Source: Candidatus Saccharimonadota bacterium (GTDB taxonomy: Bacteria > Patescibacteriota > Saccharimonadia > Saccharimonadales > Saccharimonadaceae). From it: a stretch of 32,000 nt of DNA. A model generated the notes under the pieces. That model searched no databases and had not been told where the DNA came from. It saw only the letters and a program-made list of their open reading frames with translations. The stretch spans positions 600,001-632,000 of the forward strand of contig JAIUPJ010000001.1 in NCBI GenBank assembly GCA_020160975.1, given 5' to 3'. Positions 15,804-22,277 of the stretch are shown in pieces (positions within the stretch are counted from its first letter, which is position 1; each line of letters begins with the position of its first letter). The translations under genes were made by a program, and so were the position numbers.

Positions 15804-16064
15804 TTACATGTTGACAAATAGCATGACCTCATCGGATTTGACGGTCAGCATACCGCTGTAGATCTCAAACGAGATGTCGTCGGTATCGGTGCTAATGGTC
15901 ACCGTACAGGGGATTAGCATGCTAAAAAAATCAGCGTGCCCCGGTAAGATATCAAATTCACCGACTTTGTTTTTGGCGGTAATGCTGAAAGCGGGGCCTT
16001 CATAGTAGACATGAAACGGCGCGCGGGCGATGACATTGAGGCTGGAGAGTGCTTCTTTTGCCAT
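15804..16064 (-). CDS. atpC: F1 ATP synthase epsilon subunit, short form (86 aa; N-terminal beta-sandwich only).
   Basis: Last gene of the operon, with a TAATG overlap onto atpD. Pattern ...VGEFDILPGHADFFSMLIPCTVTI...SGMLTVKSDEVMLFV matches the epsilon N-domain (GxxGILPxHxP-like). No C-terminal helical hairpin. Confidence 0.75.
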   Translation of the reverse strand: MAKEALSSLNVIARAPFHVYYEGPAFSITAKNKVGEFDILPGHADFFSMLIPCTVTISTDTDDISFEIYSGMLTVKSDEVMLFVNM

Positions 16065-17515
16065 TATTTCTTTTCTGCTTCAGGAGCTGGCTGTTCGGGC
16101 AAAGAGGGCGGTGGAGCAGCGGGTGCCTCATCTTTTTTCTCGGGGCCACTGCGTAATATCTCTTCGATACCACTGAGGGTTTGCTCAAGCGTGAAGTATT
16201 CACCGGGCTGGCCTGAGAATTTTTCGGCGACGGCAAAGTTTTGGCTAAAGAACTGGATCAATTTTTTGGCATTTTGATAATCAGAGCGGTCAGCGGGCGA
16301 AAGTTCATTTTCACCGACGATAGCGATAATGTTTTTGAGTGAATCGTACTTTTGCATGATGGCCTGCACGCGTTCAGCGAGGTGATAGTGTCGCTCACCG
16401 ACAATATCAGGAGTCAGGAGCGAACTAGTGGTTTTGAGCAAATTCACTGCTGGGCGGATACCTTGCTCGGCAATAGAGCGATCGAGCACCAGCACTGAAT
16501 CAAGCTGCTGAGAAATTGCTTGCACAGCAGGGTCAGACAGGTCATCGGCAGGTACGTAAATGGCTTGCACGCTGGTGATCGTGCCTTGCTCAGTGCTAGC
16601 TAGACGGTCTTGGAGTCGGCGAAGGTCACTAAAGACCATCGGCGAGTAACCACCTTCGCTTGGAATCAATCCGAGGTTGGTGCTCATTTCGGTCATGGCC
16701 TGGATGTGACGGTAGATGTTGTCAACGAAGAAGAGGATGTCGCGGCCTTCGGTGTCACGGAAATATTCCGCGGCAGTTGCCGCGGCTGGTGCCACCATGC
16801 TACGAATAGCTGGCGTAGCGTCCATTTGCCCGAAGAACATGACGGTATTTTTGAGCACGTCCGTGTCTTTCAGGGTTTCATAGAGTTCATTCCCTTCACG
16901 GATGCGCTCCCCGACACCGCAGTAAATAGAGAGTGATTTGCTGGCCGCGCCATCGCCTTTGTCCATAGTGACGTTGTGGATCATTTCCATGGTGAGGACG
17001 GTTTTGCCTACACCCGCACCACCGATGACACCAATTTTGCGACCCTTCACAAAGGGTGTTAAAAAGTCGATAACCTTGAGGCCGGTCTCAAGTAATTCAA
17101 GCTTGGCGCTTTTTCGGTAACTCTTGGTGCCAGTAGGCTCGGTGATGACGCGGCGATTCTCCGCAATTCCCGGTGCTTTGTCTAGCGGTTCACCGAGCGC
17201 GTTGAAGACTCTTCCAAGCGTTGCGGGGCCGACTGGGACGCTGACTTTGGTGTGTGTGCGAAATAGCTTTTGGCCACAGCGAACTACTTGGTCGTTGTTG
17301 AGATTGAGACAAATCGCTTTGCTGCCACGGAAAAAGTTTACTTCGATAAATACTTCTGGGTGGCCTTCGAGGGCCAGTAACTCCTTGGCTTCAGGGCGGT
17401 TCTTGACAATCTGTACTTCAACCGTCAGGCCGCGCAGCGCGGTTACAATGCCAACATATTCGACTGTTGGGTCGAAGGTAGGTTGTGCTGGTGATTGGGC
17501 GCCGGTAGTTTCCAT
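16064..17515 (-). CDS. atpD: F1 ATP synthase beta subunit.
   Basis: Walker [11 protein letters not shown]. Typical beta motifs: [12 protein letters not shown]-type region, [22 protein letters not shown]. Has an extra Pro/Glu-rich C-terminal tail, [24 protein letters not shown]. Confidence 0.95.
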
Positions 17516-18420
17516 TATCGATTTCCTGCCGCTTCCCGACGTTTTTTCTTGATACTGACGAGCACTTCACGCAACCGACGATCGGATTCACTTCGTTTGG
17601 CGCCGTGAAACTCGAGTTTGTATTCGCCTAGCAACTCACCGGCTCGATCTTCGGCAACAGTCATGGCATTGAAACGGCTGGCAGCTTGGGCGAGTCCCGA
17701 CTGAAGAATTGTTTGTGACAGAGCGAGACTCATCATCGTTTCTTCCATCTGGTCGGCGATTTGTGACAGCGATGGCTCAAAAATTGTGTCAGCATCCGTC
17801 ATGGTGCCATCATCCAGACCATCGCTCATATCTTTCATGTGGGTGATGAGGTCGATCCGGCGGACTTCTTGCTCGCCGAGCGACAAGTACTCTTCGTAGT
17901 ACACCGCGATCTCACTGTAGGGCCGAACGGCTTCGATGACAGGTGTAACATTGATGTAGCTATCGCTCTCGGGTACCTGGAAGAATCGCACGTAGGGAAT
18001 GCCACGTTGGGTTAACTGGCTGGCGCCGTGGCTACCAAGCACGACAATATCAGTGTTGCCAGCTTTGTATTCATCTTGCATGGTTTCGATCATGCGCATA
18101 TCGAGGTCGCCCGACAATCCCGCCTCGGCGCTAATTAGCACCAGCACTTTTTTGCCATTATCGCCCACGCCATCACGAACAGTCAGACGTTTTTTGGGGT
18201 CGATACGAATGGCAGTATAGCGCTGCCAGAGCAGGTTGAAGAATTCTTGGCTGAGCAATGCTTTGTTCTTGACTTTTGCCACCTGTGTACTGGCCAGCGA
18301 CTCAAAGACATTAGTCAAGTCCTTGAGCGTGCCGATACCGGCCATGTCTTTTTCGATGACGTTAGCCCTACGCACAGGCAGCTCCTTCAGTGAGAGTTCG
18401 CCGGCCTCTTTCTTCGCCAT
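17515..18420 (-). CDS. atpG: F1 ATP synthase gamma subunit (divergent).
   Basis: Sits between alpha and beta, with a TAATG overlap onto atpD. About 300 aa. The N-terminal [13 protein letters not shown] and C-terminal [18 protein letters not shown] helices resemble the gamma coiled-coil ends. Confidence 0.75.
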
Positions 18421-20548: not shown

Positions 20549-21438
20549 GGCGCTAACTCCTGTTTCAATTCTTCCTTGTGAGCCTCTAGCTGCTGCAAGA
20601 GGTAGGGGGTTTGTGCACCAAGATCAACTTGTTGGCCAAGGGTGTCACTCAGGAAACTAACGACGGCGTCGCTGAGCTTGGTGTCGATCGCTGCCTGGTA
20701 GCTTTCGCGTCGTTTTGCCATTTCTGCCTCAAGTTTTTGCTCCAACTCGGACTGTTTCGTCACGAAGAGTTGCTGACGACCTACCAGATCTTGCTCAAGT
20801 TCGGCCTGGTGGGAGGCGAGTGTCGTTTCCCGCTGCTTGAGTTCGCTCATCAGGACTGATTCTTTTTCTGCTAGATCGGCTTCTAGTGCAGCTTGCTTTT
20901 GTGCATATGATGCTCTGATTTGCTGAAACTCCTGGTCGAGTTCGTGAGTTCGCTCGGTTAGTTGGGATTCGAGCTGCTGCTGATGCTCTGTGAGAATTTC
21001 GTCCATTGCTTTGAGGCGTTCGGCAAGTTTTGTCTCAAGTTCGGCGGTATGTGCATCGATACCAGCGCCGGTTTCTCCAAATTTTTGAGTGGCAGAATCT
21101 TGCAGTTGAGACAGCGTTGCTTTGTAGCGCTCGACTTCTTTTCTGACCAGGTCACCCGTGAGCGCCTCAAGCTCTTGGTTGAGATGGGCGGTAGTTGTGT
21201 CGAGATCCTTGCTAAAGACAGCGGCGGATTGCTGGAGCACTTTTTCGTAGTTATCTTGAGCTTGTACCAGGATTTTCTCCTGAATTTTATCCGGCAGATT
21301 ACTAGTAGTTGATTGTGCGTCGCCAGACTTTAAGTGCCGACGCCAGTGCAGATAGGCAGCCGTCACCACGACGCCCAGCAGGAACATGTTGAAGAAAAGG
21401 ACGACCGTTAGCACTGTATTCCCACCAAGTATATCCAT
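20545..21438 (-). CDS. atpF: ATP synthase b-subunit-like peripheral-stalk protein, unusually long (297 aa).
   Basis: Single N-terminal TM, VLTVVLFFNMFLLGVVVTAAYL, then about 260 aa of Glu/Gln/Leu-rich predicted coiled coil. Sits immediately upstream of atpH with a 4-nt overlap. Identity rests mainly on position and architecture. Confidence 0.6.
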   Translation of the reverse strand: MDILGGNTVLTVVLFFNMFLLGVVVTAAYLHWRRHLKSGDAQSTTSNLPDKIQEKILVQAQDNYEKVLQQSAAVFSKDLDTTTAHLNQELEALTGDLVRKEVERYKATLSQLQDSATQKFGETGAGIDAHTAELETKLAERLKAMDEILTEHQQQLESQLTERTHELDQEFQQIRASYAQKQAALEADLAEKESVLMSELKQRETTLASHQAELEQDLVGRQQLFVTKQSELEQKLEAEMAKRRESYQAAIDTKLSDAVVSFLSDTLGQQVDLGAQTPYLLQQLEAHKEELKQELAP

Positions 21439-22277
21439 TACAGCCTCGTCAAAATTAGATAAATGGCAATCACGGACACACCCAGAATAGCGAGCACCAG
21501 TGAGGAGAGTTGGATGACATTTCGATAGACAGCTGATTGCGCCATCGGGTTACGGCCGACGCTAATAATGCTGCTGCGGATGATCGAATAGACGATGACA
21601 GACACGACCACGATTGTGATGATGAAGAGCGCCGAGCTCAAAACGATCGGCAAGGTGCTAACCTTTTTTCCCGCGACAGTGTTGGCGAGATTTTGCAGGC
21701 TGGCGGGAATAACTGTTTTTTCTGGCTGACGGTAATGATACGAGACACTGACGAGCACTGGCACTTGTCCTAGGGTTACTTCTTGATTTTCACAGAGCGC
21801 ACCTTCGATTGTTTGCTTTTGGGTGATTTCCATAGTGCCTTGGGCGGTACCGACGACTTTCGCATTTGCCGTTGCCTTCATGCCAACGCCTTTGAGCGGT
21901 GAGGCGGTAATCTGGTCACCTGGTTCAATCTTGCCATTACAATCACTTACTAGCGTAGGTGTTACGCCGTTGGTTGCTACCTGTACTCCCTTGGTGCCGT
22001 TATTGAGTGTCAGCAATGAACTGCCATCGTTGATGGCAACGCCGATGATGCTGTCGGTGGTTTCGGTTGATGCAGCAAGAACCGAGTCTGTCGAATTTTT
22101 TTCGAGTGCAACAACTGAGCCAATGGGAATGTCACTTGAGGTCGAGTAGCCCTGAGAGAGTGAGGTAACTGCACGGGTAGTCGAGGCGATCCCTGTTGCA
22201 GCCAACGACACCACAGCAAAAATGGCCACTGCCCACGCCAAGACGCGTCTACGAATTTCGTTTCCCCTGAGTCTCAT
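21438..22277 (-). CDS. Exported protein (279 aa) with a C-terminal two-helix membrane hairpin. First gene of the ATP synthase operon, in the slot where atpE usually lies.
   Basis: N-terminal signal/anchor VLAWAVAIFAVVSLAATGIAS, then an extracytoplasmic domain of about 170 aa. The C-terminal 74 aa are VSTLPIVLSSALFIITIVVVSVIVYSIIRSSIISVGRNPMAQSAVYRNVIQLSSLVLAILGVSVIAIYLILTRL. The stop overlaps the atpF ATG (TAATG). Confidence 0.7.
   Translation of the reverse strand: MRLRGNEIRRRVLAWAVAIFAVVSLAATGIASTTRAVTSLSQGYSTSSDIPIGSVVALEKNSTDSVLAASTETTDSIIGVAINDGSSLLTLNNGTKGVQVATNGVTPTLVSDCNGKIEPGDQITASPLKGVGMKATANAKVVGTAQGTMEITQKQTIEGALCENQEVTLGQVPVLVSVSYHYRQPEKTVIPASLQNLANTVAGKKVSTLPIVLSSALFIITIVVVSVIVYSIIRSSIISVGRNPMAQSAVYRNVIQLSSLVLAILGVSVIAIYLILTRL

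Follow-up and report, generated by a model that had tools for sequence, protein, structure and literature searches.

A diverged F1-like ATPase operon with a candidate non-canonical membrane sector in Saccharibacteria and other lineages of the candidate phyla radiation

Introduction

A 32,000-nucleotide stretch of the genome of a Candidatus Saccharimonadota bacterium (GenBank assembly GCA_020160975.1, contig JAIUPJ010000001.1, positions 600,001 to 632,000; hereafter the window) carries seven co-directional open reading frames (ORFs) on the minus strand at 22277-15804, in the order X-b-like-delta-alpha-gamma-beta-epsilon. The locus resembles an F-type ATP synthase operon in which the genes for subunits a and c (atpB and atpE) are replaced by that of a single membrane protein, X. 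It raises the question of whether these genes are one part of a split operon, with a and c encoded elsewhere, or encode an atypical complex; both possibilities had been put forward from the letters of the DNA and their translations alone (the sequence-only reading). The interpretation favored here is that the gene set is a divergent paralog of the F1Fo genes and neither a broken nor a simply split atp operon. With a probability judged slightly better than even, the operon encodes a specialized F1-like ATPase with a non-canonical membrane sector ('X0'), a diverged F1Fo paralog that occurs across the candidate phyla radiation (CPR). Its product is probably an ATP-driven machine that serves the cell surface and not an ATP synthase, and it is best read, by analogy, as the CPR counterpart of the mycoplasma 'F1-like X0' ATPases.

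Operon organization and conservation

The genes of the operon, in the order of transcription, are as follows.

22277-21438, minus strand: X, 279 aa, membrane protein occupying the place of atpB/atpE
21438-20545, minus strand: b-like protein, 297 aa, one N-terminal transmembrane helix and a long coiled coil
20548-20063, minus strand: delta/OSCP-like subunit, 161 aa
20070-18556, minus strand: alpha-like subunit, 504 aa, GTG start
18420-17515, minus strand: gamma-like subunit, 301 aa
17515-16064, minus strand: beta-like catalytic subunit, 483 aa
16064-15804, minus strand: epsilon-like subunit, 86 aa, beta-sandwich only

The gene order given in the sequence-only reading was reproduced, with all seven ORFs on the minus strand and five of them identified by Pfam, and the translational couplings that it had described were found exactly where it placed them: TAATG junctions at X/b, gamma/beta and beta/epsilon, an ATGA junction at b/delta, and an 8-nt overlap (GTGTTTGA) at delta/alpha. 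The sole exception to these coupled junctions, which that reading did not mention, is a spacer of 135 nt between alpha and gamma (18421-18555). This spacer is not present in relatives, where alpha and gamma overlap or nearly abut.

A scan of one genome per species detected X in 275 genomes, and the best 80 of these together with three loci found earlier were read in detail (83 loci). The order X-b-delta-alpha-gamma-beta-epsilon was the same in every locus as far as its contig extends, and X occupied the position that the canonical order assigns to a and c in all of them, as had been proposed for the window. Homologs of X located away from ATP synthase genes, which the sequence-only reading had named as evidence that would count against it, were not seen: X lies directly 5' of F1-like genes in 83/83 loci.

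A diverged F1 with intact catalytic residues

The delta (OSCP), alpha, gamma, beta, and epsilon subunits are identified by Pfam through PF00006 and PF00306 (alpha), PF00006 (beta), PF00231 (gamma, E = 3.5e-25), PF02823 (epsilon, which is without the C-terminal helical domain), and PF00213 (delta, C-terminal half only, 29.8 bits). All five score below the cut-offs of the corresponding NCBIfam equivalog models: 388 against 484 for alpha (TIGR00962), 445 against 462.85 for beta (TIGR01039), 68.7 against 194 for gamma (TIGR01146), 28.9 against 57.5 for delta, and 34 against 67 for epsilon. Compared with sequences drawn from an annotated Escherichia coli genome, alpha is 37% identical to AtpA and about 12 residues shorter at its N-terminus, beta is 43% identical to AtpD, and gamma and the b-like protein gave no BLAST match to their E. 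coli counterparts. Canonical betas (E. coli, mitochondrial, and two bacterial representatives) share 61-70% identity among themselves and 34-43% with the X-type beta family. Members of that family have a mass of approximately 52.5 kDa, and the epsilon subunits encoded with them are 84-96 aa in length. The absence of the N-terminal barrel domain PF02874 from beta was considered as a diagnostic trait and rejected, since most related betas are also without that match. The C-terminal tails of alpha and beta are Lys/Pro-rich and of low complexity (approximately 18556-18650 and 16064-16150), for example ...KADKKSKKEKKK.

The designation of the second gene as b is in part upheld. Its position, kept in 81/83 loci, and its architecture fit a b subunit; the protein has no match to PF00430 (ATP-synt_B), and its only Pfam matches are coiled-coil noise. 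The b-like protein is shorter in other lineages (185-246 aa).

About 90 homologs retain Walker A, the catalytic Glu, and the Asp of Walker B, as well as the alpha Arg finger and motifs that include FVDN (in beta) and VRPAVN. Because these catalytic residues and the Arg finger are retained, the enzyme encoded by the operon should, as judged from its sequence, hydrolyze ATP.

Search for subunits a and c

The statement that no atpB or atpE is recognizable was borne out by Pfam on the operon and on the other ORFs of the window, none of which matched subunit a (PF00119) or subunit c (PF00137). A c-subunit hidden Markov model (HMM), a scan for the a-subunit motif R-x-x-x-N with its conserved Arg, and phmmer searches with the E. 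coli a and c sequences likewise gave no match in approximately 100 related loci, within the 8-10 kb of neighborhood covered around each. The further statement that no protein of the window has an a-type motif or a c-type carboxylate hairpin requires amendment: the a motif is absent and the carboxylate is missing, as stated, but X itself ends in a c-like hairpin with an R-N-P loop.

Architecture of protein X

Protein X has no match in Pfam or NCBIfam. An alignment of 43 homologs (A1) shows a three-part build, with a hydrophobic and variable N-terminus, a conserved region of approximately 170 aa, and a C-terminal pair of helices. These parts and the loop between the two helices were located with the alignment and an AlphaFold2 model (pLDDT 80.7).

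22170..22277, minus strand: signal peptide, aa 1-36, ending in a conserved small-x-small (A-x-A) cleavage motif; modeled helix 5-31
21663..22169, minus strand: ectodomain, aa 37-205; modeled as all-beta over residues 41-181
21441..21656, minus strand: C-terminal two-helix hairpin, aa 208-279; modeled helices 208-240 and 246-278
21546..21557, minus strand: GRNP loop, aa 241-244, invariant in 43/43 aligned homologs

The cleavage motif is followed in the alignment by an invariant mature start, VT.ISQGY. With Foldseek, the modeled ectodomain matched best the cement or decoration proteins of phage capsids (8pkh, 8hdt_G, and 6qyy; E values down to 2.5e-5 and a template modeling score of about 0.5 on the target). 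Pfam families PF23982 (XM1_gp53_minor_capsid) and PF22758 (Phage_cement) match three homologs of X at borderline level (P0045, P0087, and P0114; P0045 scores 27.3 against a cut-off of 27, and the others fall just under), and the X of the window itself has no match. The modeled fold resembles that of phage cement/decoration proteins.

The two hydrophobic helices of the hairpin are joined by a loop that reads S-[VI]-G-R-N-P in the 43 homologs and still reads [GS]RNP where X shares only 25-37% identity with that of the window, Parcubacteria-group contigs included. It is the only motif of X retained across all lineages, as expected if the loop docks the F1 rotor. In the predicted topology, the ectodomain and the C-terminus are both outside the cell and the loop is cytoplasmic. 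Subunit c has the same topology (N-out, loop-in, C-out), and its RQP/RNP loop contacts gamma and epsilon. At the position of the c-subunit carboxylate, the hairpin of X has Leu or another neutral residue, and acidic residues are missing from the ion-binding position and its surroundings. An hhalign comparison of a profile of 83 X hairpins with nine c subunits aligned the two in register on the loop (local P 0.0016, score 21.7), and the control scores were lower, at most 16.2 in 30 column-shuffled profiles and 11.5 in a reversed one. The hairpin is c-like in loop motif and topology, a weak likeness at the level of sequence and not a demonstrated membership of the c family.

Distribution of the operon

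A total of 1473 homologs of X were found; all named homologs of X and of alpha belong to Candidatus Saccharibacteria or Saccharimonadales, those of X being Saccharibacteria throughout. The complete genome CP064995.1 (1.01 Mb) has the same neighborhood as the window: its ATPase operon is flanked by the pilus cluster described below and, on the opposite side, by genes for TylF, an ion-channel fragment, PadR, PspC, and a two-component system. Metagenome contigs whose X is only 33-37% identical carry the same operon. 'Parcubacteria group' contigs encode an X of 250 aa followed by b (214-246 aa), delta, alpha, gamma, beta, and epsilon (85-96 aa). In their X, which is 26-30% identical to that of the window over both domains, a signal peptide precedes a related beta domain, helix 1 is rich in Gly, and the loop reads G/S-R-N-P. 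Outside the Saccharimonadales, epsilon is directly followed by the gene of a response regulator, in many cases accompanied by a histidine kinase (L084:9548-9964, L096:9645-11249, L104:6902-8730, and L106:9372-9758), which suggests regulated expression or a functional link.

A canonical Saccharibacteria beta that could prove co-occurrence with X was sought by scanning 1.84 billion representative proteins, looking up clusters, and searching with a profile, and none was recovered by these means. The divergent CPR betas that this search returned were rejected as canonical, as they proved to belong to X-type operons themselves, and their inclusion widened the family.

Apart from the X-type genes, a beta-like protein of Mycoplasmatales was observed to be 61% identical to a 453-aa protein of Thermoguttaceae (Planctomycetota; P0155; P0162/P0348) annotated as 'ATP synthase beta subunit C-terminal domain-containing protein'. 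From these sequences, another F1-like clade spanning very distant phyla may exist.

Canonical ATP synthase operons in Saccharibacteria

The operon of Southlakia epibionticum reads atpZ-a-c-b-delta-alpha-gamma-beta-epsilon; its Pfam matches are normal (PF00119 for a, PF00137 for c, and PF00430 for b), epsilon is 141 aa in length, and the genome has a single F1 set and no X-type genes. Published data on rhodopsin-bearing lake Saccharibacteria show a contiguous a-c-b-delta-alpha-gamma-beta-epsilon operon. In a published table of COG counts, RAAC3 is listed with all eight subunits in single copy, and Saccharibacteria RIFCSPHIGHO2_12_FULL_41_12 (GCA_001790445) has two copies of alpha, beta, gamma, and epsilon and one each of a, c, b, and delta. 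The latter counts suggest one canonical operon plus one X-type set; that delta and b are counted once is as expected if the X-type delta and b-like genes escape COG assignment.

The proteome table of Candidatus Mycosynbacter amalyticus lists an abundant alpha (QHN42722, 55.3 kDa) and an abundant beta named 'atpD' (QHN42726, 50.2 kDa), approximately 545 protein ids away from the pam pilus operon of that organism (QHN43268-43274). The 50.2-kDa beta fits the canonical Saccharibacteria beta (458 aa, or about 50 kDa as estimated from length) and not the larger X-type beta. Taken together, these published data indirectly suggest that a genome with pam and X-type genes also holds a separate, canonical, and highly expressed ATP synthase, the second sets in the RIFCSPHIGHO2_12_FULL_41_12 and M. 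amalyticus genomes being putatively of the X type. Ordinary atpB and atpE genes probably exist elsewhere in the genome that contains the window, within a second, complete operon and not as a missing part of this one, and their presence is therefore a poor discriminator between a split operon and an atypical complex.

Flanking genes and the candidate Pam-type pilus neighborhood

The genes and signals around the operon are listed from its 5' side to the left end of the window.

23012-23479, plus strand: 155-aa ORF matching only the N-terminal part of the Ion_trans family
from 22461, divergent from the operon: TylF-type methyltransferase gene
22316-22288, minus strand: sigma-70-like promoter hexamers TAGAAA-17-TATACT, 5' of X (consensus scan only)
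15762-15743, minus strand: terminator-like hairpin, 3' of epsilon (consensus scan only)
15192-15629, minus strand: 145-aa ORF with one transmembrane segment, between epsilon and the tail-fiber-like gene
13844..14863, plus strand: membrane-anchored beta-helix 'tail-fiber-like' protein, divergent from the end of the operon
8525..13791, minus strand: Pam-type pilus cluster, syntenic in Saccharimonadales loci, comprising the next five entries
13791-13030, minus strand: PamT-like protein, 253 aa, single domain
12985-11783 and 11659-10529, minus strand: two pilin paralogs of approximately 380-400 aa each
10524-9541, minus strand: chaperone-like protein, 327 aa, two domains, C-terminal transmembrane helix
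9484-8525, minus strand: PamR-like protein, 319 aa, immunoglobulin-like (Ig) domain, C-terminal transmembrane helix
5026-8391: 1121-aa CBM_4_9 protein
1-4950, minus strand: giant ORF cut short by the left end of the window (at least 1671 aa), encoding a surface protein with Kelch-like repeats

The start of the operon at X, with a divergent region upstream, was confirmed: the sigma-70-like site lies in the 183-bp intergenic region between X and the divergently transcribed TylF gene. The ORF at 23012-23479, predicted from its partial match to be a truncated voltage-gated-type channel fragment, is kept as a 133-aa gene in L100-L102. No counterpart of the 145-aa ORF was found in the 83 related loci; it was not counted as a part of the system and may be lineage-specific or spurious. 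The first 5000 nucleotides of the window seem poor in ORFs, yet they hold the one giant ORF, and relatives L100 and L101 carry genes of 1594-1614 aa at that place. An Rfam scan of the window gave no match.

The cluster at 8525..13791, a putative Pam-type cluster, agrees in gene order, gene sizes, and C-terminal anchors with the pam operon of M. amalyticus. That operon encodes a pilus and comprises PamT, A, E, D, R, B, and C, with chaperones that are anchored in the membrane, and genes for an 'ATP synthase subunit' and for a protein called 'tail fibre-like' lie consistently beside pam across CPR (Troman et al., bioRxiv 10.64898/2026.03.03.709456). A search of the PDB by sequence with the concatenated Pam-like proteins of the window gave no match. 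The protein at 13844-14863 is probably the 'tail fibre-like protein' of the Pam neighborhood. Its gene stands beside epsilon in 62/62 Saccharimonadales loci reaching that far, and the cluster of secreted (pilin) proteins is present in 57/58; in the window, this cluster also takes in giant surface proteins.

Proposed mechanism

The sequences establish an intact alpha3beta3-type catalytic gene set with gamma, a minimal epsilon, delta, and a b-like stalk, transcribed together with X and without a or c, and a strict genomic link to surface structures; the mechanism is inferred. As judged from its sequence and model, X is exported by means of its signal peptide, displays its beta domain outside the cell, and is anchored by its helical hairpin. 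In the mechanism proposed for the specialized F1-like ATPase, X is taken to oligomerize into a ring, with the GRNP loop docking gamma and epsilon; ring formation and the binding of gamma and epsilon are both part of the proposal. ATP hydrolysis by F1 would turn or strain this ring against a stator of b and delta. The complex would move no ions, because it has neither a subunit a with its half-channel nor a membrane carboxylate, and the mechanical work would go to the extracellular domains and their partners. In the Saccharimonadales, the likely recipients would be the neighboring Pam pilus, the tail-fiber-like protein, and the giant adhesins. The real ATP synthase of the cell, where present, would be encoded by a separate canonical operon.

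A bolder form of this proposal, put forward tentatively and considered doubtful, is that the operon represents a widespread CPR rotary motor independent of the proton-motive force, distinct from ATP synthases and flagella. Its F1 head would turn a ring of X (a c-derived hairpin joined to a phage-cement-like domain) and deliver work outside the cell to Pam pili, tail-fiber-like proteins, or giant adhesins that serve to grip and exploit hosts.

Several observations weigh against the reading as an F1-like ATPase with an X0 sector. The occurrence of X and a canonical operon in one genome is suggested by two published tables, read indirectly. The hhalign probability of the match between the hairpin of X and subunit c is only 16%, so that homology is weak, and neither Pfam (14 X hairpins scanned, with noise only) nor PDB sequence searches (with the full X profile, the hairpin alone, and the hairpin profile) gave a match to c. 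The b-like and delta subunits are retained, which is the pattern expected of a stator still docked on a subunit a. In a related variant (L088-L092, e.g. L092:6522-11733), the operon reads b (208-232 aa)-delta-alpha-gamma-beta-epsilon (108 aa), and X, a, and c are not found within 10 kb of it; beta is 54-57% identical to that of the window, and its neighbors are housekeeping genes, those for MetRS, TatD, and a cysteine desulfurase to one side and those for MnmA, AlaRS, and FtsA to the other. The linkage to pam is confined to the Saccharimonadales, so that the output of the machine is uncertain, and in other lineages the neighbors are two-component regulators and other large surface proteins. 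Furthermore, Sec signal peptides are present on the Pam pilins, whose assembly is argued in the preprint to need no dedicated energy source (bioRxiv 10.64898/2026.03.03.709456).

Alternative explanations

Of the alternatives, a split ATP synthase survives best. The operon would then provide the only F1 of the cell, ordinary a and c subunits would be encoded elsewhere, and X would be a co-transcribed accessory or assembly factor. The retained b-like and delta subunits speak for this explanation, as does the X-less variant, which lies among housekeeping genes like an ordinary atp cluster. It is nevertheless judged unlikely. Where a and c genes are seen in Saccharibacteria, they form part of complete operons whose own F1 scores normally; in one Saccharibacteria genome, two F1 core sets stand against single a, c, b, and delta genes; and M. 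amalyticus encodes another abundant alpha/beta pair at a distant site. Moreover, across CPR classes X is not separated from the F1-like genes and its GRNP loop stays c-like, and every subunit of the operon is strongly diverged, with a truncated epsilon. Between the two options left by the sequence-only reading, the atypical complex is accordingly favored and the split operon disfavored, given the diverged genes, the constant presence of X at the place of a and c, and the complete atp operons elsewhere.

A true ion-translocating ATPase or synthase, in which rings of X, perhaps with the b-like helix, would form a novel ion path without subunit a or a carboxylate, is considered improbable. The hairpin has a topology and loop like those of subunit c and a semi-conserved polar position, occupied by Q, N, or K, about 12-13 residues beyond RNP in helix 2, and NCBI names the alpha subunit 'sodium-transporting two-sector ATPase', an automatic name. 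However, X has no conserved membrane-embedded acidic residue, none of its transmembrane-helix residues outside the loop is invariant across lineages, and no protein with an a-type Arg motif was found in the loci scanned. We know of no earlier case of rotary ion transport in which a half-channel stator is lacking.

A secretion or export ATPase is given the same low standing as a novel ion path. Here the F1-like head would energize the export or unfolding of pilins or giant adhesins through X, on the model of FliI/FliH/FliJ in type III export. Alpha and beta do match FliI/SctN models, and the operon always adjoins genes for secreted proteins; yet the scores with the models of type III secretion system (T3SS) ATPases lie far under those with the F1 models and under their own cut-offs, the head is heterohexameric and accompanied by gamma and epsilon, all Pam components have Sec signal peptides, and X has two transmembrane helices only and no obvious channel.

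A decaying, non-functional remnant of a duplicated atp operon, to which the loss of a and c, the truncated epsilon, and the fast sequence evolution might point, is hardly credible given the intact and translationally coupled ORFs, the conserved catalytic residues, the identical gene order in at least 80 species and other CPR classes, and the invariant GRNP loop of X.

As assignments to established families, V/A-type and T3SS ATPases were rejected on model scores and gene order, and an N-ATPase was rejected on gene order and content, with scores for TIGR03324, TIGR03305, and TIGR03323 far below their cut-offs.

Significance

A full-text literature search returned no paper tying CPR, Patescibacteria, or Saccharibacteria to an F1-like ATPase or one without a and c. 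Surveys and annotation pipelines (JGI and NCBI) label these genes as F-type or 'sodium-transporting two-sector' ATPase, and genome surveys use such alpha, beta, gamma, and epsilon genes to argue for the use of proton gradients in CPR. If the module has no ion path, these metabolic inferences need revisiting for genomes that carry only the X-type form. The authors of the pam preprint read the ATPase genes beside pam as a link to ATP production (bioRxiv 10.64898/2026.03.03.709456), a view that the reading as an X-type operon would correct. The strict linkage to pam within the Saccharimonadales provides a concrete and testable candidate for how episymbionts energize their surface structures. If the F1-like X0 reading is true, an idea so far described as confined to mycoplasmas extends to a second, large group of reduced, host-dependent bacteria, and X, with its c-like hairpin without a carboxylate, is a possible intermediate in the re-tooling of rotary ATPases. 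The new elements would be the occurrence of an F1-like X0 ATPase in another phylum and its distinctive partner protein, a c-like fusion; confidence that it is a genuinely new kind of rotary device with extracellular output is modest.

Comparison with known systems

The operon shares with the canonical atpIBEFHAGDC operon the order b-delta-alpha-gamma-beta-epsilon, the translational coupling, the Pfam domains, and the catalytic residues. It differs in having no a, c, or PF00430 match, in the scores of all five F1 subunits under the equivalog cut-offs, in a b-like protein of nearly twice the usual length, and in an epsilon without C-terminal helices; the true operons of Saccharibacteria look quite different from it. 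N-ATPases (atpDCQRBEFAG) are likewise a second, diverged F-type operon in some genomes, but they retain a and c, have AtpQ and AtpR in addition, and are ordered differently (beta-epsilon-Q-R-a-c-b-alpha-gamma).

The hairpin of X resembles subunit c (PF00137) in its topology, in an Arg-Asn-Pro loop at the RQP/RNP position and, in the Parcubacteria X proteins, in a Gly-rich helix 1. In contrast to subunit c, it has no carboxylate or Pfam match and is fused to a signal peptide and an ectodomain of approximately 170 aa. The ectodomain is similar in predicted fold to phage cement/decoration proteins (by Foldseek, and by borderline Pfam matches in homologs), while X is a cellular protein, membrane-anchored and encoded in an ATPase operon. 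With its putative Pam-type cluster, the window has the same neighborhood and gene order as the pam locus of M. amalyticus; the preprint on that operon does not note that the neighboring ATPase genes are without a and c, carry X, or are unlike the abundant atpA/atpD of the organism.

The closest parallel is with the F1-like X0 ATPases of mycoplasmas, which drive gliding of Mycoplasma mobile (Type 2) or are needed for the MIB-MIP antibody-cleavage system (Type 3) (Beven et al. 2012, PMC3369863; Berlureau et al. 2026, PMC12994834). Both systems have diverged versions of alpha, beta, gamma, and epsilon, no a or c, and a genomic tie to a surface system, and both encode a membrane protein with a signal peptide, an ectodomain, and two C-terminal transmembrane helices; this last resemblance, between X and MMCAP2_0577, is an analogy in which homology was not detected. 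The mycoplasma clusters accompany a canonical operon, as is probably also the case in genomes with the X-type form. The operon of the window is not a member of the mycoplasma group at the level of sequence: its scores fall under the cut-offs of the MSC_0618/0619 and MMOB1660/1670 models (247 against 520 for NF045936, 375 against 570 for NF045934, 306 against 600 for NF045863, and 332 against 850 for NF045858), and X matches no model. The CPR system belongs to a different phylum, has no 12-transmembrane protein or 19-kDa cytoplasmic protein, and keeps delta and a b-like stalk in the canonical order, and its X combines a c-like RNP loop with a phage-cement-like ectodomain.

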